A stretch of 31,357 nucleotides of DNA from a virus. Its lineage: Duplodnaviria > Heunggongvirae > Uroviricota > Caudoviricetes. Where the stretch lies: positions 1 through 31,357 of IMG/VR virus record IMGVR_UViG_3300032046_004423. The stretch is one strand, 5' to 3'. The position numbers and the translations under genes are program-made. The notes under the pieces were generated by a model. That model saw nothing but the letters and a program-made list of their open reading frames with translations, was not told the DNA's origin and searched no databases. Every line of letters starts with the position of its first letter. The first letter of the stretch is position 1. Of this stretch, positions 1,013 through 29,123 are shown in pieces.

Positions 1013-1262
1013 TAACTGCCTCCTTCCCCTTCTTTAAAGCTTCCCACTCGAGTCTGACTATGTCTTCCAGGGAGAATTTACCTTCCATTAGGAGTTGGAT
1101 TCGTGCTAGGTTTATCCCATTGTGCTCTTTGTAGCAGGAGATATGATGATGCTCAGGGAAGTGGTCAGTTGCTGGAGTTTCTACAATCCTGACTTCACCT
1201 GACTCGATGGGCTTGACGCAGGACTTGCAGATGGCCTTGTTGCCTGTTCTTGCTTCTATCAT
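996..1262 (-). CDS. Stand-alone PARP-type (CCHC) zinc finger protein, 88 aa
   Basis: AAGGAGG SD; EARTGNKAICKSCVKPIESGEVRI...HHHISC matches the zf-PARP pattern A-x-S/T-x-R/K-x-x-CxxC-x3-I-x2-GE-x-RI...HxxC. Confidence 0.65.
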   Translation of the reverse strand: MIEARTGNKAICKSCVKPIESGEVRIVETPATDHFPEHHHISCYKEHNGINLARIQLLMEGKFSLEDIVRLEWEALKKGKEAVNGKKV

Positions 1263-1303
1263 TCAACTATCCTCCTTATTCAATTTTTAAAGTACAGACT
1301 AGA

Positions 1304-1335
1304 AAGGGGGGCATCGTTTTATTGACACCCCCCTT
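1304..1335 (-). terminator. Probable terminator or attenuator hairpin after 1353..1541
   Basis: AAGGGGGGTGTC-AATAAAAC-GATGCCCCCCTT followed by TCT; short U tract suggests partial read-through. Confidence 0.6.
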
Positions 1336-1352
1336 GACCGGGGATTGAACTA

Positions 1353-1541
1353 CTATTTCTTGCCCTTGCCGCCGCCAGCTGCGAGCAACTTATTGTACTC
1401 ATCCTGGTGCGCCTTAATAAGTTGCTGAGTCGCTGTTCTGCGGGCTTTTGACTGACCTCGGCGAGCCGTGCGGTTCCCCATCCACTTTTCGAACGCTTCA
1501 CGTTTCTCTTCCTCAGTCATCTCTTCGAACTTCTTTGCCAC
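1353..1541 (-). CDS. Small Arg/Lys-rich protein, MAKKFEEMT family, 62 aa
   Basis: AAGGAGG SD and GTG start; lies between a consensus promoter and a terminator hairpin. Confidence 0.8.
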   Translation of the reverse strand: MAKKFEEMTEEEKREAFEKWMGNRTARRGQSKARRTATQQLIKAHQDEYNKLLAAGGGKGKK

Positions 1542-1650
1542 TTTTTCCCTCCTTCTTTTTCCCTTCGCCTCTCACCAAAGGTTGTCCTCGCTGTTGGGTC
1601 GACCGAACCCACTTTGTAGTGCTCACCTCCCTATTCGCTTCATTGTCCTA

Positions 1651-3097: not shown

Positions 3098-3316
3098 TTA
3101 CTGTTTACTTAGTAGCTCGGCTGTTTTAGCTTTCATCCAGTTGTATAGTTCTTCTGGCTTACCTATGCTTCCACTGAGTATAAGTGAGTCATGGATTTGA
3201 ACTATTGTAACTCCTAGTTCTTTTGCTTTTTCATATAGTAGAGGTAGGAGTTTATTATCTAAAAGCTCTGCCTGCTTCCACTGTTCCTCAAAATTCTCAA
3301 AACTAGTTTTTGTCAT
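3098..3316 (-). CDS. Hypothetical protein with an IHDS motif (polymerase palm-like fragment?), 72 aa
   Basis: ORF track; GVTIVQIHDSLIL resembles motif C of PolA/T7-RNAP-type palms. Confidence 0.55.
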   Translation of the reverse strand: MTKTSFENFEEQWKQAELLDNKLLPLLYEKAKELGVTIVQIHDSLILSGSIGKPEELYNWMKAKTAELLSKQ

Positions 3317-3341
3317 TCTGCTTTCTTCTTATTTCTTTCTA

Positions 3342-4175
3342 CTACCCCAAATTACCCTCAAAAATTTGAGTTATATAGAGATATCCTACCCAATCATTAC
3401 CTTCTTTGGTAGTAAAGAGGCTTACTCCTACCCCAGTCTTAGTGAATCTGCTATGCAGAATATTATCTCTGTGACCTGGACTTTCCATCCACCCCTTAAC
3501 TGCCCAATTGGTTACTTCCTCTAGAGAAAGGAATCTTCCTGGAATAAATCTTTTATTTGGTGTTCTAGATAAGTTTTCTCCCCTTGTAGTCCCAGGCATC
3601 TGTCCAGCATCAAAGTCTCTTTCCCCAAAGAGCCTTTCGTGCGAGAAGTATCCATGGGATGCCATACTTTGACTATGCTCACTAGCTAAGTTAGTGAGGG
3701 AGGTGTCAAGTACTAGCGGGCTAAGCCCCTGTTTAATTCTTTCTGTATTTACTAGAGTATATACTTGATAGGCTACCTCCTCTATAGAGTAGCTGGGTAC
3801 TACTCCCACTGCAGTAGTTGGTGGAGTGGTCTGTACCCCAGGAGGACTTATAACGGAAGTTTGATTAGTTCCCCAAAGATAAGATACTAAAATAGGGGCG
3901 ATGACTAGAATAGCTAGAACTAAAACTATAGGTAGTAAGGGGCTCTTCCCCCGCTTAGTTATCTTCCTAAAAGGCTCTTTCTTATAGTATTCTATATGGC
4001 TAAACTCAGAGGGAGACTTATCCTTTCGTTTAGACACAAACTTGAGGGGAGGGTCCTGGTTCCCAAAGGAGATAGCATTCTCCTCTTGCCTAAGTTTTCT
4101 TAGTCTTTTCCGAGTGCATTCTACGCAGGTACAAGCTGGCGGGTGCCCAGACCTACTTGCTTCCCTACTATCCAT
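3342..4175 (-). CDS. Membrane-anchored CAP/SCP-domain protein (YkwD-like), 277 aa
   Basis: TM helix LLPIVLVLAILVIAPILVSYLW, P/T-rich linker, then LVNTERIKQGLSPL...HSQSMASHGYFSH...GENL...GWMESPGHRDNIL...GVGV. Confidence 0.9.
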   Translation of the reverse strand: MDSREASRSGHPPACTCVECTRKRLRKLRQEENAISFGNQDPPLKFVSKRKDKSPSEFSHIEYYKKEPFRKITKRGKSPLLPIVLVLAILVIAPILVSYLWGTNQTSVISPPGVQTTPPTTAVGVVPSYSIEEVAYQVYTLVNTERIKQGLSPLVLDTSLTNLASEHSQSMASHGYFSHERLFGERDFDAGQMPGTTRGENLSRTPNKRFIPGRFLSLEEVTNWAVKGWMESPGHRDNILHSRFTKTGVGVSLFTTKEGNDWVGYLYITQIFEGNLG

Positions 4176-5592
4176 CTGTCCGTCTCCTACTTTGCCTTAG
4201 GTCCTCAACTGTCTCCTTCATAATATCCCTATCGTTGAGGAATTCTACACTTAGTTTCTTCTTACCTTCTAGTATCTTGTCAAAACTTTCGTCTATTGTA
4301 TCTTCTATAACTGGAAGTATAACTTGGACAGCATTTTTAGCACCAATACGATGGAGCCTATCCTCTGCTTGGGTATTTACTGCTGGACTCCACCATCTAT
4401 CCATCATGACTAGGTTAGAAGCAGCAGTTAGTGTTATACCTTCACCCATACATTGGGTTGTGCCTAAAGCTAACCTTATGCTATCATCTTCTTGAAATCT
4501 CCTAACCATATCTGCCCTGTCAGTTAGGGAAGTTTCCCCAGTTATACATATGTGAGGGTAGGGCAGTGTAAAGTGGAGGTATTGAATATACTTCTCAAAG
4601 CAGGAATATATTACTATCTTACCATTAGTATCTTCTAATAATTCCTTAAGGAAGTCAGTCTTGGCTGATGGGGCGGTTATTCCTACAATAGTGGGTTCTA
4701 GATTGAGCTGTCTTAGTCTAGTTAGTTGGGCTAGTACTGATGGTGCCCATAAAGGTTCACCACTATCAAGTAGTATCCACAACTCATCCTCCATCTTTTT
4801 ATAAATCTCCCTCTGCTCATCACTCATCTCAAGTAATACCCTCCTATAGTACTTGTCTGGTAGATAGGGCAGTACTTCTTTCTTTGTTCTCCTTATAGTA
4901 AAGGGAGCTGTCTTTTCCCTTAGTATTTCCATATTCTTTACACCGGTTATCTTAATCCCATACCTGGTCTGCCAGAAATAGCAGTAATCCCTGATGAAGC
5001 TCATTCTACCGTATCTATTATAACTATCTGGTTTTACCATACAGAGTAGAGTATGAAGATCAGCTGGATTATTTACTATGGGACTACCAGTTAGAATTAA
5101 AACTCTACTATCCTTGTGGTGGGATAGGAACTCGAACATTCCCTTAGCTTGGGAAGTCTGTTGGTTCCTTAGTCTATGACCTTCATCCATTATGATTAGG
5201 TCAAAGGGATACTCATTGAGTATTTCTCTATGCCTCTGTGTCCTAAGGGTCTCGTAGTTAACGATGAAGAATGGATTGTAGCTATCCTTACCTAACATAT
5301 CATAGAAAAGTGGTTCTAATCTCCTATAGTAGGAACCCCTACCTCTTACTGCTGCGTCAATACCTGTCCAGTCTCTGATTTGTCTAACCCATTCTAGCTG
5401 TAGTGAGTTAGGGCAAGCAATTAGGGTTTTGCGGTAACCTCCTAGCATAGCTAGACCAATAGCTACGGGAGTTTTACCTGTGCCCATCTCACTTAACAGG
5501 AGGTATGACTCCTCAGTCTTTAATAGTCTATCTAAGTCTTCTTTTTGAAATGGAAATAGAGATTCCGGGAGTTTAAACCTATGCTCGTTCAA
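4168..5592 (-). CDS. SNF2-family (SF2) helicase/translocase, 474 aa
   Basis: Walker A EMGTGKT, DEGH box, LTGSP, GEGITLTAAS and QAEDRLHRIG motifs in the correct order. Confidence 0.92.
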   Translation of the reverse strand: MNEHRFKLPESLFPFQKEDLDRLLKTEESYLLLSEMGTGKTPVAIGLAMLGGYRKTLIACPNSLQLEWVRQIRDWTGIDAAVRGRGSYYRRLEPLFYDMLGKDSYNPFFIVNYETLRTQRHREILNEYPFDLIIMDEGHRLRNQQTSQAKGMFEFLSHHKDSRVLILTGSPIVNNPADLHTLLCMVKPDSYNRYGRMSFIRDYCYFWQTRYGIKITGVKNMEILREKTAPFTIRRTKKEVLPYLPDKYYRRVLLEMSDEQREIYKKMEDELWILLDSGEPLWAPSVLAQLTRLRQLNLEPTIVGITAPSAKTDFLKELLEDTNGKIVIYSCFEKYIQYLHFTLPYPHICITGETSLTDRADMVRRFQEDDSIRLALGTTQCMGEGITLTAASNLVMMDRWWSPAVNTQAEDRLHRIGAKNAVQVILPVIEDTIDESFDKILEGKKKLSVEFLNDRDIMKETVEDLRQSRRRTDG

Positions 5593-5827
5593 AGTTGAGT
5601 ATCCTCCTACTAAAATTTTTGTCTAGGAGCTCGTCATACCATACTACTAAGCAGTCATACCCTTGCTTTCTATAGTAGTTGATTACTTCCTCATCGTCGC
5701 CAAGCTCCTTGGTATGCCACTGATAGCCAAAGTACTCAATAAGCTTTTTCTTGCTAGTATGGATAAAGTCAGGTATCTTTCTACCTATCCTTGCCCCGGT
5801 GGAGTTATACTCCCAGCAGCCCGGCAT
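5579..5827 (-). CDS. Vsr/DUF559-like endonuclease domain, probably N-terminally truncated, 82 aa
   Basis: KIPDF...IEYFGYQWH...GYDCLVVWYDEL pattern; no SD, and an in-frame TAG four codons upstream of the ATG. Confidence 0.7.
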   Translation of the reverse strand: MPGCWEYNSTGARIGRKIPDFIHTSKKKLIEYFGYQWHTKELGDDEEVINYYRKQGYDCLVVWYDELLDKNFSRRILNFERA

Positions 5828-6129
5828 GCTTTCTAGCTAGACCATCAGCTATCTTTAACCATTGAACGCAGGAGGTTGATAGATAGAGAACTGGTTTCTC
5901 ATCCAGTATAGAGTGTAGAATGGTTATGCATCCTATCCTATAGTTGTAGCTAGCACTACGGAGAGGGCATCCCCCACATTCCGGATAGCTATAGCAAATG
6001 CAAGGTTTCTTAATTATTAGCTGATCTAGTCCTTCTTCAACGTTTTCTAGATTAAATCTTTTCTCTAAAATATTCCAGTCCCCTCTCGTTTAATCCTACA
6101 GTGAATCCACTAATTTTTGCTAGTCTCAT
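5805..6129 (-). pseudogene. Cys-rich hypothetical gene with an apparent +1 frameshift near 6080-6083
   Basis: ATG at 6129 (GGAGG SD, ATGA overlap) stops after 25 aa; removing one G from GAGAGGGGAC joins it to an open frame ...ERDWNILEKRFNLE...KPCICYSYPECGGCPL...WLKIADGLARK ending at TAA 5805. Confidence 0.6.
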
Positions 6130-6800
6130 CTAGCCTCCTGGGTAAATATTTCTAATGGCTTTGCATCCAAACCCATTTCCTTAGCCAATGACTGACAGTT
6201 GGAACATACCCAGACGAGAGTGTTAATAAAAGGAGTAGGCTTCACTGTAGCGTGAGGCATCTCAGTAACAAACTCGAGACGCTCTTCTAAGGAAGCATCG
6301 GGTGATAGTAGCTGCTTCCCGCAGAGGTAACATTTATCCCTAAGATTATCTAGCTCCTTAGATACCTCTTGCCATCTTGACAGTAAAGTCTTAACCTTTC
6401 CAGCCAGTACCTCATAGCTGTCGTCCATTAACCACTGACCATTAACTATCTCCTCTATAGCGAGGTCAGAATATCTGCGCTTGAGTACTGGACTTTCTAG
6501 TATCACTTTAAGATTAGCAATGTAAAGAATTTCCTCATCTTCTACCTCACCCCTGCATTGTTTGTCTATTAAATCTTGTCGTGTAGCAAAGACTGCTTGA
6601 ATTGAGAGCCAGCCTTCTACCATACGTTGAGCTATAACCTCTAAGGAAACAGAGTTCTTCTCAAGCTTGGGCAAGTTTAGCTCAATCGTTGGTCTCTGGT
6701 TCTTAAGGTCATCTCCCTGGGCTGCATCCCACTGACTGTGCTTGAGGATATCCTTATCTCCCCAGACTATTGTTGTTACTTTAACATTAGGAAGAAACAT
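6126..6800 (-). CDS. Hypothetical protein with C-terminal Zn motif (CYLC...CSNC), 224 aa
   Basis: ORF track. Confidence 0.75.
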   Translation of the reverse strand: MFLPNVKVTTIVWGDKDILKHSQWDAAQGDDLKNQRPTIELNLPKLEKNSVSLEVIAQRMVEGWLSIQAVFATRQDLIDKQCRGEVEDEEILYIANLKVILESPVLKRRYSDLAIEEIVNGQWLMDDSYEVLAGKVKTLLSRWQEVSKELDNLRDKCYLCGKQLLSPDASLEERLEFVTEMPHATVKPTPFINTLVWVCSNCQSLAKEMGLDAKPLEIFTQEAR

Positions 6801-6802
6801 AA

Positions 6803-6973
6803 TTATACCTTCTTCATACTTAGCAGAAAAGAATGGATTTTCTCTACCTGAATTCTAGCCTCTTTGTCATCTGAATACAACCAGTCTATGTTTTGACTAC
6901 TGAGCTCTATTACTTGGGCAACAGGTCTATCATCTATTGGTGAAAAAGGATTAAGAAAACTAAGCCAACTCAT
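6803..6973 (-). CDS. Hypothetical protein, 56 aa (MSWLSFLNPF...SMKKV)
   Basis: Translated by hand; GAGGAGG SD; fills the gap; homologous to the C-terminus of 5805..6129. Confidence 0.65.
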   Translation of the reverse strand: MSWLSFLNPFSPIDDRPVAQVIELSSQNIDWLYSDDKEARIQVEKIHSFLLSMKKV

Positions 6974-7371
6974 TCTTCCTCCTCTTTATCTTTATTATCT
7001 GAAATTCCCTTTTCTTTCAGGAAAGCTTGACCTTCTTGGGATTTCCATATATCCTTGCCACCCCAAAAACTGCGGGTGAACTCAACTACTTCTTTTATAC
7101 CTGTCTTTTGACTATCAAATTTAAGACAGGGAATAATACGGTTTAATTGCTGGGCTTGCTCAATTGTTATCCCATTTTGGGAACAGGATTTAATCCATTT
7201 TGTTTTCTCCTCAACTTCTCCTGCGGGGAAAGAGATAATAGCTTGGTTTTCTGCTGTTATTAGTGCTATATATGCTTCTCTATCAGCACTTAACTGCGAG
7301 TCTAATTTTCTAACTTTATCCCTTATAGCCTTTAATTCCTCGGGCTTCAGTATTGTATCTTTAGGGTCCAC
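6970..7371 (-). CDS. Hypothetical phage protein, 133 aa
   Basis: GGAGG SD and GTG start; KTGIKEVVE...W motif shared with 21175..21453. Confidence 0.7.
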   Translation of the reverse strand: MDPKDTILKPEELKAIRDKVRKLDSQLSADREAYIALITAENQAIISFPAGEVEEKTKWIKSCSQNGITIEQAQQLNRIIPCLKFDSQKTGIKEVVEFTRSFWGGKDIWKSQEGQAFLKEKGISDNKDKEEEE

Positions 7372-7384
7372 TATTTACCTCCAT

Positions 7385-8521
7385 TTATCCAAAGTCTTTT
7401 ATGATACCATAGACTTTCCGCATTCTTGCCTTCTCAAACTTGGTTGACATTGCTCTCATTACGCTAACCTTATCCACCAGGATGTTCTTACCAATCTTTT
7501 TATACTCAGACAGAACATCCTGCCTAAACTGCTGCTCTCCTTTTACAAAGTCTAGGCACTTCTCTATTAAATAGTGGTGTGCTTCTATAATTTCTGGCTT
7601 GAACTCCTCAAGGAGTAGTTCCTTTACGAAATCAACTGTTGGCTCATCTGTATTCTCATAGGAGTTCCAGCAAGTTGCTATTATTGTATTCTTGCCTAGA
7701 CCTCCTGCCCCAGCAGAGAAGTGTATCATCTCTATGGTTTCAGGCTTACATTTTAACTGGATATACCTACCATCGAGAGTTTTAAGATACCATACTGTTC
7801 CTTCTGTCCCTGAATAATAACCTTCCTCCTCCTGCTTGAGTCCCGCTTCCAATGTCTTTTGGAGAGTCTCATAATTCCATACATAGTCCTTGGTTACTAC
7901 ACTAAACTGTTTTACTACTGGAATGGGTTCAACTGTTCCTAAAACAGTAGGGGGAAGTACATTACCAGCATTAGTTACCCCAAATAGTAAGGCTATGGCT
8001 AGGGGGATATCTTTATACACAACAAGGTGTGGATTTCTTGCCCCATATAACTCAAAAGATAAATTACACTCATTCCTTACCATTATTTTCTTTATGCAAG
8101 CTTGCAAGGGGGGAGTAACAACTTCCAGCCACATATTCTGAAAATCGCCAAATCTGCTACTACTGACAAAAGGTCTCAGTCGTGTTTTGTAAGAGAAGTA
8201 CCTCCAGCCATCCTTATCAATATAGGAGAAAGCTAGAATATTGGTACCATCCAGCTTCTCATAAATTTCTATCTCCTTTGTGGGAGGGAATTTATAATTC
8301 CTAGTTCCATCTGCACGAGAATCAAATGGGTAGTTCATCTTGGGAGTACCCATTATCAACTGTGGTTCAACCTCGTGGTTATTCACCTTTGTAATGAGTA
8401 GAGCACCATAGAACTGGTTTGGTCTCCTTGAAATGTATCCCTCTACTAGGTTGGGGTTAAAAGGGTCGGACTCGCAAAATTCCTGGTAGTCCCTCCCAAA
8501 TAATTCTCGTGGGTCCATCAC
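7385..8521 (-). CDS. ATP-dependent RNA ligase, Rnl2-like nucleotidyltransferase, 378 aa
   Basis: Motif I EKLDGTN, motif III SFELYG, motif IV EGTVW, motif V LKCK, followed by a helical C-terminal domain. Confidence 0.82.
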   Translation of the reverse strand: MMDPRELFGRDYQEFCESDPFNPNLVEGYISRRPNQFYGALLITKVNNHEVEPQLIMGTPKMNYPFDSRADGTRNYKFPPTKEIEIYEKLDGTNILAFSYIDKDGWRYFSYKTRLRPFVSSSRFGDFQNMWLEVVTPPLQACIKKIMVRNECNLSFELYGARNPHLVVYKDIPLAIALLFGVTNAGNVLPPTVLGTVEPIPVVKQFSVVTKDYVWNYETLQKTLEAGLKQEEEGYYSGTEGTVWYLKTLDGRYIQLKCKPETIEMIHFSAGAGGLGKNTIIATCWNSYENTDEPTVDFVKELLLEEFKPEIIEAHHYLIEKCLDFVKGEQQFRQDVLSEYKKIGKNILVDKVSVMRAMSTKFEKARMRKVYGIIKDFG

Positions 8522-8778
8522 TTATCCTTCTCTATTTCCTTTACTGGCCTCCAGCCCTTTTGCCACATATCAGCTTCAATTCCTTCCATAGGTAATTCTA
8601 TCTTACCCTTAAAAACACACCTACTGGCTACTATAGGGAGGATTTGGTCAGCAATGTTGTAACAATGTCCTGACTTATGGACAAACTCGTAGCTAGTATA
8701 CCAGCCAGTATCACTACCGGTATCATCCATCCATATCTGCCTAGCTATCTCCTCCCTTAGTTCCTCATACTTACTCAT
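8518..8778 (-). CDS. Hypothetical protein, YEELREEIA...VASRCVF family
   Basis: ORF track 8518..8820; the start is more likely ATG 8778 (MSKYEEL), matching its paralogues. Confidence 0.7.
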   Translation of the reverse strand: MSKYEELREEIARQIWMDDTGSDTGWYTSYEFVHKSGHCYNIADQILPIVASRCVFKGKIELPMEGIEADMWQKGWRPVKEIEKDK

Positions 8779-26712: not shown

Positions 26713-27429
26713 TTAAGTAGATAGTCTTCCTGCTAGGTTTTTCAGCTCTTCAACAGAAGTAAGGCCCTTGCCCCGCATAACTTGTCCATTGTGTAGCCTG
26801 AGGATTCTTTCTTTCTCCTCTGCTTCCTTTTTGAGGGCACCGTTCAATTCTGAAATCGTCTCCTTGTAAACTCTCTCGTTTGCGTTCAAGGTTCCTACCT
26901 GGGAAGTAAGTCTATCATACTCTTTTATAGCCTCAACAACTCTAGTAAGTAAAGCGTCGGCTATACTTCCCGAGGTTACTTCTATTCTCGAAGCCTTCTT
27001 TAATGAGGACCTTACTGGTGTCTGGTCCCTTATACTCCTACGCCAACCGAAGACTGTGGTACGAGCTATTCCATACTGGTGTGCGAACTTTTCACAGCTA
27101 ATTTTGTGATTTTTCTCATACTCATCACTAAAGAATCTTCGTATCGGTACTAGTTCATTTTCGCTTAGCCTTCTTTTTTTACCTTCCTTAGTCCCGGGCG
27201 AAGACTCTCCCTGGCTTTCCCCTAGGACTGGAATATTAGCTTTGTCAGGTTTATCTATCAGTCTCTGCAAAGCTGGAACACCGATATGGTAGTGCTTCAT
27301 CGTAGCAATCCTACCATGAGCTTTATAGTATTCCACAATCTCAACTTTATTCTCGGAAATCCACTTACTACGGGCTGCGTAACTTAAAAAACCCCGTTTT
27401 TTTAGTCTCTCAAGTGGTGATTCTGCCAT
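26713..27429 (-). CDS. HTH DNA-binding protein with a C-terminal coiled coil, 238 aa
   Basis: AAGGAGG SD; SCEKFAHQYGIARTTVFGW is a classic HTH; a possible second HTH (RIATMKHYHIGVPALQRLI). Confidence 0.65.
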   Translation of the reverse strand: MAESPLERLKKRGFLSYAARSKWISENKVEIVEYYKAHGRIATMKHYHIGVPALQRLIDKPDKANIPVLGESQGESSPGTKEGKKRRLSENELVPIRRFFSDEYEKNHKISCEKFAHQYGIARTTVFGWRRSIRDQTPVRSSLKKASRIEVTSGSIADALLTRVVEAIKEYDRLTSQVGTLNANERVYKETISELNGALKKEAEEKERILRLHNGQVMRGKGLTSVEELKNLAGRLST

Positions 27430-27457
27430 CTTGTACCTCCTTACTAATTTTATTTAG

Positions 27458-27577
27458 TTACTCAGGTTTACTATTCTTTGCTGTGGTTTCTCTTAGGCAC
27501 CCTTCGCACAGCTTGAGTCCTAGTTTCCACTTCAACACCTTTTCAACCTTGCTTTTACACCTACTACAAGTTCTCAT
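27458..27577 (-). CDS. Zn-finger peptide, 39 aa (CSRC...CEGC)
   Basis: Translated by hand; AAGGAGG SD. Confidence 0.7.
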   Translation of the reverse strand: MRTCSRCKSKVEKVLKWKLGLKLCEGCLRETTAKNSKPE

Positions 27578-27604
27578 AATAGCTACCTCCTTTTCTCTTT
27601 TATT

Positions 27605-28190
27605 ACTCCTACTGGTTCGGGAACTCGGAGTGAGGGCTGGAGGCTGGGATTATTATTTGGTTCCTCCACTAAGTAAGTTCTACCTTACCTTCTATCACCC
27701 TCACTTCTTACCTTGACCAGGCTCGTACCTATTTTTATGCCTGAGCCTACCGCAGTAGCGGGACTCTGACCCCATCCAAATGTATGAGGCTGTAACTGGA
27801 CTTAGCCCAAACTTATCAGCCTGCTAGTGCAGTGTTCACTTTCTGACCACCTGTCTCTACGACCATTAGGGGTGTTGGTAGTGAACATACTCGTTTGGTA
27901 CTCCAAATGCCCCTTGCTTCTCTCTCGTGTACTAGCAGACTTATGCCAGCCCAAGGACTTCCACCTTGGGACGGGGAGCTTAGTAGCGAGGACTACTCGC
28001 AGACTTTTACTGCGTCAATTTATCGCCCTGTGTCCTAGGTTGTCGTTTTTATACAGGTTCGCCTCGCTCTGATGGCTCAAAGGCTTAGTGGTAAGCTCCA
28101 CTCGGATGACAACCACATCTTGCTCTCCCTAACCAATTTCCCAGCGTCTTTAATGAGAATTTCGCCACTGGCAATCTTATTCAGTTGTTA
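27605..28190 (-). ncRNA. Candidate large structured ncRNA (about 590 nt), family unassigned
   Basis: No sense-strand ORF of 60 aa or more in a gene-dense operon; about 48% GC by hand count versus about 39% in flanks; more than 10 helices of 5-10 bp, including crossing pairs; ends approximate. Confidence 0.65.
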
Positions 28191-28195
28191 ATGTA

Positions 28196-28408
28196 CTAAC
28201 TTTTTCTAGCTTTAACTAGTCCATTTCTTACTAGCTGGTAAGGTTGAAGATTTTGAGGATGCCTTCTGAGGAATTCTGTTGCACCATCCATCATAGCACT
28301 ATTGTAACCGGATGACTCAACCTCAATTTCTTCTCGTATATTAAGGTAGTGAATATGAACAATATACTTACTCAGGTTTTTTATTTCCTTTCTTATCTTT
28401 AACCTCAA
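28196..28408 (-). CDS. Hypothetical protein, 58-70 aa (start uncertain)
   Basis: ORF track; the core YIVHI...IEVESSGYNSA resembles 29127. Confidence 0.55.
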   Translation of the reverse strand: MRLKIRKEIKNLSKYIVHIHYLNIREEIEVESSGYNSAMMDGATEFLRRHPQNLQPYQLVRNGLVKARKS

Positions 28409-28499
28409 CTAACCAAGTCGGAAAATGTTTCCTTGCTGAATTGGCTATCTCCTCAGCATCCTCATCCTTCACTGTTACCTTCATAGTAATCGTCTTCAC
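28368..28499 (-). CDS. Small protein, 43 aa (MKTITMKVTVKDEDAEEIA...)
   Basis: Translated by hand; GGAGGAGG SD; GTGA overlap. Confidence 0.6.
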   Translation of the reverse strand: MKTITMKVTVKDEDAEEIANSARKHFPTWLVEVKDKKGNKKPE

Positions 28500-28603
28500 T
28501 TACCCTCCTCCTTCTCTTCTTTTGACTTAAGGGCTTCTTCTAGTAACTGCCTTTTAAACTTCTTGATTTTATGGTGCTTTTTATACTGTTCCAAACTAGC
28601 CAA
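28496..28603 (-). CDS. Small basic protein, 35 aa (MASLEQYKKHHKIKKFKRQLLEEALK...)
   Basis: Translated by hand; AAGGAGG SD and TTG start; first SD-supported gene after the leftward promoter. Confidence 0.55.
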   Translation of the reverse strand: MASLEQYKKHHKIKKFKRQLLEEALKSKEEKEEGK

Positions 28604-28671
28604 TTTACTTGCCCTCCTTTGCACTTACACTTGAGTTGGTCATCTTTCCGACTCAATTTTAATCATACCAT

Positions 28672-28700
28672 ATCATAACACACTTTCATATAACTGTCAA
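28672..28700 (-). promoter_or_regulatory. Main leftward sigma70-type promoter
   Basis: TTGACA-17 nt-TATGAT with extended TG; a second TG-n-TATGAT 10 nt downstream; part of the repeated 34-bp module. Confidence 0.85.
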
Positions 28701-28898: not shown

Positions 28899-29123
28899 AT
28901 GGATTATATGGAAGTCAAACAGATATTTAGGGAGGAGTTGCATCGCTGGCTTGAGCACACGCTAGAAGGAAAGAAATGCCCAGAGTGTGGTACTATTACT
29001 ACAATGGTTAAGGTATTTGTTGAGCCACCTGAGGGTGCACCTGAGTTAGCCCCAACTGTACTAAAGTGGAGATGCCTCAACTGTTTGGGACTATTCACCG
29101 AGGAACTAACTAGGAGTAAGTAA
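28899..29123 (+). CDS. Zn-ribbon protein (CPEC...CLNC), 74 aa
   Basis: AAGGAGG SD; first rightward gene. Confidence 0.75.
   Translation: MDYMEVKQIFREELHRWLEHTLEGKKCPECGTITTMVKVFVEPPEGAPELAPTVLKWRCLNCLGLFTEELTRSK

Follow-up and report, generated by a model that had tools for sequence, protein, structure and literature searches.

We find that the stretch between positions 27578 and 28195 of this phage DNA is non-coding, without residual coding signal, and that, by comparison with a sister contig, it forms one optional, sharply bounded unit of a hypervariable early region together with a small gene for a basic zinc-ribbon protein (Table 1). Our favored reading, which we put forward tentatively and hold to be somewhat short of probable, is that the stretch represents a new, rare and sparsely populated family of structured RNA that is read from the minus strand and co-transcribed with the early genes. 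The window analyzed here (the whole stretch of DNA presented, 31,357 nucleotides) covers the initial 31.4 kb of an IMG/VR virus record that is 109.6 kb long. Among public sequencing runs, the phage was listed in only one, a sediment metagenome that is probably its source sample, and in no RNA sequencing run.

The minus strand carries almost all genes from position 125 to 28624, rightward genes begin at 28899, and an AT-rich divergent promoter region separates the two gene blocks. The sequence TTGACA-17-(TG)TATGAT is the only strong leftward promoter-like site, and the ORF-free stretch follows about 470 nt downstream of it. In minus-strand order, the promoter is followed by ORFs of 42, 43, and 70 aa, the ORF-free stretch, a 39-aa ORF, and the gene for a 238-aa HTH protein. 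The earlier note had placed a candidate RNA at the head of the early operon; it does lie inside the early leftward unit at that distance from the promoter, but it is an optional part of it, as the operon of the sister contig runs without it.

This sister contig (L002) is a 10.7-kb ENA contig that is syntenic with the window, with flanks that are 93 to 97% identical. Window positions 28599-28197 correspond to 3384-3774 of the contig with 92.8% nucleotide identity, up to the stop codon of the 70-aa ORF, and homology resumes with window positions 27459-27038 against 3781-4208. The HTH gene copy in the sister contig directly follows the 70-aa ORF. Because the contig has the same operon without the element, we regard the element as an optional cassette rather than a fixed operon leader, and as dispensable. 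A Logan contig of the run covers the region identically, and the HTH protein (P0001) was recovered from JGI/IMG, Logan, and ENA, so that a chimeric or otherwise artefactual origin can be set aside. No second copy of the stretch was found in the 109.6-kb genome.

Several smaller observations concern the neighborhood of the cassette. The 70-aa ORF looks like a real gene, since it differs from its counterpart in the sister contig by 7 nt but only 1 aa. For that counterpart, the gene caller listed no gene. The 70-aa ORF has only a TTG start, without a clear Shine-Dalgarno site, and overlaps the end of the 43-aa ORF by 41 nt (28368-28408) in the +1 frame; an A-rich run, AAUAAAAAACC, stands at the end of the 43-aa ORF, and translational coupling or frameshifting at this overlap is possible. 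A search with the 70-aa product against 5.8 billion proteins gave no match, not even to itself. Directly behind its early promoter, the sister contig carries an extra 70-aa predicted membrane protein (3171-3383) that has no counterpart at about 28600-28650 in the window. Its SNF2 helicase lies about 3.5 kb downstream of the HTH gene (3811-8724), compared with about 21 kb in the window (4168-27429), which indicates that the phage studied here has roughly 18 kb of extra small early ORFs. Only two relatives of the 238-aa HTH protein, one of them on the sister contig, turned up among 5.8 billion proteins; searches of IMG/VR with this protein, the 70-aa product, and the Rad52-like flanking protein returned no relatives, and a search of JGI metagenomes with the 238-aa protein returned only one contig (L003/L008), which is without an RNA-like region. 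An 881-nt contig of the same run shares 36 nt of the HTH gene (27154-27189) with 4 mismatches, suggesting that more relatives of the phage are present in the sample.

The 39-aa protein encoded in the last part of the cassette is rich in lysine and arginine, and among 1.84 billion representative proteins it matched itself only, as a single-member cluster. The GC content of its ORF is 41%, the same as that of the genome and unlike that of the ORF-free stretch with which it was inserted.

The absence of coding capacity in the stretch, which the earlier note had claimed, is borne out here. No credible ORF runs from the stop codon of the 70-aa ORF (28196) to the start of the 39-aa ORF (27577). Overlapping ORFs on the plus strand (27414-27716, 27827-28072, and 27895-28038) and on the minus strand (27802-27954, with a TTG start) were rejected as spurious, as they have no family matches, and the spurious 81-aa plus-strand ORF found no match among 5.8 billion proteins. 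All six frames are broken, those of the minus strand by 6, 15, and 17 stop codons. Dinucleotide shuffles give an equally low minimum, six stops or fewer in the best of six frames, in 41% of cases (P = 0.41), and their longest open runs are comparable to that of the stretch (P = 0.30). When the least-broken frame was read through, it gave no Pfam, PHROG, or phage tblastn match, and the codon-usage log-likelihood relative to the phage's genes is negative in every frame. The 70-aa open piece of the least-broken frame reached a protein-model recognition score of 1312, compared with 2495 for the neighboring zinc-ribbon ORF. A pseudogene was dropped as an explanation because the low-stop frame is not significant against shuffles; a run of micro-ORFs was dropped because only ORFs of 13 and 28 aa with weak Shine-Dalgarno sites are present; and an alternative genetic code was dropped because each frame contains all three stop codons.

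The composition of the stretch also sets it apart. Its GC content, given earlier as about 48%, is 48.8% by our measurement, whereas the window averages 40.9% and the 109.6-kb genome 40.7%; this places it at the 99.3rd percentile of 586-nt genome windows and makes it the fourth highest among non-overlapping ones. The GC-IGR approach to RNA discovery (PMC11109978) enriches for candidates by this very property, a long intergenic region whose GC content is raised within an AT-rich genome. No plus-strand promoter and no strong terminator were found inside the stretch. Iterons, long repeats, and the AT-rich tracts typical of origins or packaging sites are likewise missing from it, and a replication origin or repeat array was dropped from consideration for want of iterons.

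Known RNA families do not account for the stretch. A search of the whole window with the Rfam 15 covariance models at gathering thresholds gave no match there, nor did searches at E <= 10 with permissive filters on slices of 1201, 251, and 400 nt; the models for ROOL, GOLLD, OLE, raiA, and HEARO were without a match to it. The same search scored a group I intron (RF00028) elsewhere in the genome with 52.3 bits (E = 1.7e-11) as a positive control. These results uphold the view that the stretch bears no hallmark of RNase P, tmRNA, group I or II introns, or HEARO. ARAGORN found no tRNA or tmRNA in the window.

Folding analysis gave a more mixed picture. All ten helices that the earlier note had found by hand and listed with coordinates are indeed present, two of them requiring a G.U wobble on the minus strand (equivalent to an A.C mismatch on the plus strand), but their number does not exceed that in dinucleotide shuffles. 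Perfect complementary 7-mers number 16 compared with 10.8 +/- 4.2 in shuffles (P = 0.14), perfect complementary 8-mers number 5 compared with 2.6 (P = 0.19), and the stretch contains no perfect complementary stem of 9 bp or longer. The two proposed pseudoknots are 5- to 7-bp complements that are indistinguishable from chance in one sequence. As regards folding energy, the stretch does about 2 SD better than dinucleotide shuffles, but the minus strand, which had been proposed, does no better than the plus strand: with 150 shuffles, the minimum free energy z-score is -2.0 for the minus strand (3 of 150 shuffles as good) and -2.6 for the plus strand (0 of 150), and with 20 shuffles only it was -1.5 and -3.8, respectively. 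In 150-nt windows, the mean z-score is -0.78 (minus) and -1.28 (plus) inside the stretch, compared with -0.04 and -0.31 outside (Mann-Whitney P ~0.015). Folding thermodynamics is undecisive with regard to strand.

The predicted ensemble is diffuse, with a high diversity of 153, and the long-range helices P1 and P2 listed earlier have pair probabilities below 0.6. A single large multi-pseudoknot fold, as first proposed, is not established. Local elements are predicted with higher pair probabilities (Table 1); the best-predicted hairpin of the ensemble lies toward the 5' side, and no other part of the stretch has a better local z-score than the 3' three-way domain (minus strand, -2.3; plus strand, -4.0). 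A hairpin module occurs in two copies whose stems differ by a G-C to A-U swap. The loops of this module are complementary to sequence that is used in helices P1 and P2, and the local hairpins and the long-range helices would thus be alternative foldings.

Table 1. Features of the early region, in window coordinates; L002 is the sister contig, and records 3 and 4 are contigs of sequencing run X1.
Feature	Position	Strand	Basis or comparison
Main leftward early promoter-like site (TTGACA, 17 nt, TG-TATGAT)	28700-28672	-	11/12 matches
43-aa early ORF	28368..28499	-	Kept in L002, differing at 9 nt and 5 aa
70-aa ORF, directly upstream of cassette	28196..28408	-	L002 homology ends exactly at its stop codon
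Accessory cassette, ~736 nt (ORF-free stretch plus 39-aa ORF)	27460..28195	-	~6 nt instead in L002
ORF-free, GC-enriched stretch (candidate structured RNA)	27578..28195	-	ORF, stop-codon, and GC analysis
Conserved block A	28125..28153	-	27/29 nt identical in 598-nt contig (record 3), run X1
Predicted closing helix AUUGGU/ACCAGU plus GGGA/UCCC, enclosing ~520 nt	28137-28126/27622-27611	-	Pair probabilities 0.80 and 0.69
Hairpin module CGAGURG-N6-CYACUAAGC, two copies 105 nt apart	28104-28083, 27999-27978	-	
Conserved block C	28026..28065	-	36/40 nt identical in 315-nt contig (record 4), run X1
Conserved block B	27989..28022	-	31/34 nt identical in record 3, collinear with block A
Predicted hairpin CGCAG-UAAAAGU-CUGCG	27998..28014	-	Pair probability 0.96, best-predicted in ensemble
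Predicted central hairpin domain UGUUCACU/AGUGAACA	27833..27887	-	Pair probability 0.87
Predicted 3' three-way domain AGUGAGGGU/GCCCUCACU, two hairpins enclosed	27629..27705	-	Pair probability 0.95
39-aa basic CxxC...CxxC zinc-ribbon ORF, last part of cassette	27458..27577	-	Shine-Dalgarno site AAGGAGG, 8 nt before ATG
238-aa HTH protein (P0001), downstream of cassette	26713..27429	-	52%-identical copy in L002

None of the collections that we searched yielded a full-length homologue of the region. A blastn comparison with 50,697 phage records and 72,556 plasmids found none, and five exact or gapped DNA patterns searched in IMG/VR returned only chance k-mer matches in coding regions (L004-L007, L013-L038, and L018). 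One DNA pattern found no homologue in JGI metagenomes, and two patterns searched in 185,579 species genomes gave one chance match, in Lysinibacillus. A search at blastn level of 401 Bacillota genomes returned only matches of 20 to 37 nt with per-genome E values of 9e-4 to 8e-3, which we take as chance because 401 genomes were searched.

The positive leads came from a comparison of the region with the contigs of run X1, the one run that holds the phage. Blocks A and B are separated by 98 nt in record 3 and by 102 nt in the window, and block A includes the 3' arm of the first hairpin as well as the 5' strand of the long-range helix that is predicted to enclose about 520 nt. Block C corresponds to the hairpin CCUGU...ACAGG, whose 21-nt loop contains GACAACC. 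We calculate that chance alone would produce fewer than 0.01 matches of each such kind in 3.7 Gb, and a collinear pair much more rarely still. Similarity in record 4 extends beyond block C: of the 30 nt beside it, 19 are identical and collinear, compared with 6 to 10 of 30 at the other loose ends. The best-predicted hairpin (27998-28014) reads CGCCG-UAAAAGC-CGGCG in record 4, a single compensatory change from A-U to C-G, for which we estimate a chance probability of about 0.1; its loop is almost the same in both sequences. On the other side of block C, GGAGCUUACCAC recurs as GGAGUCUACCAC, with a linker that is 4 nt shorter. The fragments are GC-richer than the window and the upstream context of record 3 is unrelated, which indicates that they come from other genomes. 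Run record 5 also matches over 35 nt that span the cassette junction, but this match was set aside because it is at chance level by our own calculation.

Taken together, the conserved blocks, the kept spacing, the unalignable linkers, and the one compensatory pair hint at a conserved structured RNA. The homologous fragments span only the 5' 165 nt of the stretch, not the remaining 400 nt, and these two partial fragments are too few for a statistical covariation test. The possibility raised in the earlier note, a new class of early-expressed phage RNA, gains from the non-coding nature of the stretch, the lack of an Rfam match, and two partial homologues, but draws nothing from the number of helices, which is at chance level.

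Should the reading of a new structured RNA family be correct, the stretch would be the template of a structured non-coding RNA in a cassette that ends in the gene for the 39-aa zinc-ribbon protein. The RNA would be part of the early minus-strand transcript, which would start at the promoter near 28672-28700, and may fold into separate domains that are each stable on their own: blocks A, C, and B would make up a 5' domain, followed by the central hairpin and the 3' three-way domain. We assign it to the minus strand on the grounds of its context, the lack of a plus-strand promoter, the two G.U pairs, and a minus-strand purine richness of 58.6%, which is equal to that of the operon's coding strand. 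Promoter-proximal variable early regions of phages are a typical home of host-takeover and anti-defense genes. The location of the cassette in such a region and the co-travelling 39-aa protein lead us to propose, with low confidence, an accessory RNA that acts in trans. Its early function may be of the host-takeover or anti-defense type, and co-insertion raises the possibility that the RNA forms a small ribonucleoprotein with the zinc-ribbon protein. We consider improbable the bolder idea that an ornate RNA of a new class, about 0.6 kb long, and its own 39-aa protein make up an early ribonucleoprotein that acts against, or decoys, host defense and moves between unrelated phages of sediment bacteria.

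Among the alternatives, the one that survives best, though we judge it rather unlikely, is that the stretch is functionless foreign DNA, a decayed gene or non-coding DNA of a GC-richer genome that arrived by illegitimate recombination and looks structured merely because it is GC-rich. This would fit with its absence from the sister contig, with a highly mosaic early region (the SNF2 helicase lies 21 kb downstream in one phage and 3.5 kb downstream in the other), with helix counts and folding energy near chance, and with the lack of homologues in the large collections searched. It fits less well with short blocks of about 90% identity that keep their spacing and are unalignable in between, found in two partly GC-richer contigs, as this pattern points to constraint. 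Moreover, phages rapidly delete useless DNA, and the stretch carries no residual coding signal.

A long cis-acting leader, which we think quite unlikely, would control the translation, stability, or read-through of the 39-aa ORF, the HTH gene, and some 27 kb of genes on the same strand. Occlusion of the start codon, antitermination, and processing are conceivable mechanisms. In favor of this reading, the stretch lacks its own promoter and terminator, leads directly into the 39-aa ORF with its strong Shine-Dalgarno site, is gained and lost with that ORF, and is followed by a very long single-strand operon. Moreover, UUCUCAU (28158-28152) is complementary to AUGAGAA at the start codon of the 39-aa ORF, within an inverted repeat (15 nt, 80%) whose arms bracket the whole stretch; at this length, however, chance alone would yield about 11 complements of 7 bp. 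A length of 590 nt also far exceeds that of known bacterial or phage leaders of such a kind, the operon of the sister contig runs without the element, and the diverged homologue in record 3 has an unrelated upstream context.

Very unlikely, in our view, is a plus-strand RNA that is antisense to the early transcript, or an element that acts at the DNA level as a protein-binding or recombination site. The plus strand does fold at least as well as the minus strand, both overall (-2.6 versus -2.0) and in the 3' domain (-4.0 versus -2.3), and the compensatory change is neutral with respect to strand. On the other hand, no plus-strand promoter-like site was found at or to the left of the stretch, two helices require G.U pairs of the minus strand, and iterons, long repeats, and AT-rich tracts are missing; no integrase or transposase partner accompanies the stretch, and no reverse transcriptase, IS110, or TnpB protein scores above cut-off in the genome.

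A divergent form of a known mobile or guide RNA (group I or II intron, omega RNA [HEARO], IS110 bridge RNA, or retron) is largely refuted and hardly credible: the stretch does behave as an insertion and a group I intron is present elsewhere in the genome, but the stretch itself lacks the RF00028 core and any covariance match at E <= 10, group II intron and retron models included, the insert is intergenic, beginning directly after a stop codon and ending before the next Shine-Dalgarno site, and the 109.6-kb record holds no RVT_1 (with positive controls detected), no IS110 recombinase (PF01548), and, for TnpB (PF07282), only a sub-threshold 17-bit zinc-ribbon match in a BRCT protein 25 kb away. 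The flanking 238-aa HTH protein, moreover, is found in the sister contig without the RNA.

If the preferred reading of a structured RNA is right, the stretch would be a new family among the large structured phage RNAs. Like GOLLD and like ROOL, whose size class is about 0.6 kb, it is phage-borne, non-coding, about 0.6 kb long, and GC-enriched relative to its genome, with an accessory distribution. Unlike them, it is without a covariance match, adjacent tRNA genes, or its own promoter and terminator. ROOL and GOLLD are large ornate RNAs of phages, prophages, and bacteria that have been studied by cryo-EM (PMC12286853). A second comparison is with OLE, a non-coding RNA of about 600 nt with dedicated Oap proteins, since here, too, a protein gene, the basic zinc-ribbon ORF, was co-inserted with the candidate RNA. 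The stretch differs from OLE in having no Rfam match and a 39-aa protein whose lack of detectable relatives leaves no demonstrable tie to OapA, OapB, or OapC, and in that the pairing is deduced from co-insertion. Finally, the stretch resembles the candidates of the GC-IGR and comparative pipelines (PMC11109978) and of a phage-wide survey (PMC10690425) in being a long intergenic region with a GC content well above that of the genome. Those candidates are defined by covarying alignments, whereas the stretch amounts to one full sequence and two fragments, and by the GC-IGR scheme (PMC11109978) it would rank as an 'unnamed' or low-ranking candidate.

Large structured RNAs such as ROOL, GOLLD, and OLE are among the least understood products of bacteria and phages, and each new family broadens the basis for their study. 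Two points would make this candidate unusual: it is embedded in an early operon rather than free-standing, and its gain and loss are coupled to those of a tiny basic zinc-ribbon protein, a co-insertion that offers a concrete, testable RNA-protein pair. The case at present consists of a single complete sequence and two fragments, all from the same sediment sample, and is of value as a lead for a targeted homologue search rather than as an established RNA class.

Other regions of the genome show some of the same features. Past the end of the window, at genome positions 31411-32180 (L009), is a second ORF-free, GC-rich stretch with 50.5% GC over 586 nt, whose ORF gap (31503-32180) lies behind the rightward early genes. 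Neither the Rfam nor the tRNA search matched it, and it does not resemble 27578-28195. The group I intron lies at genome positions 108499-108696 on the minus strand (L012:1500-1697), outside the window and within an ORF-free gap (108248-108679). Further GC maxima over 586 nt occur at genome positions 99728-100313 (L011), which have no Rfam or tRNA match and reach 52.4%, and at window positions 1042-1627, which reach 49.3%.
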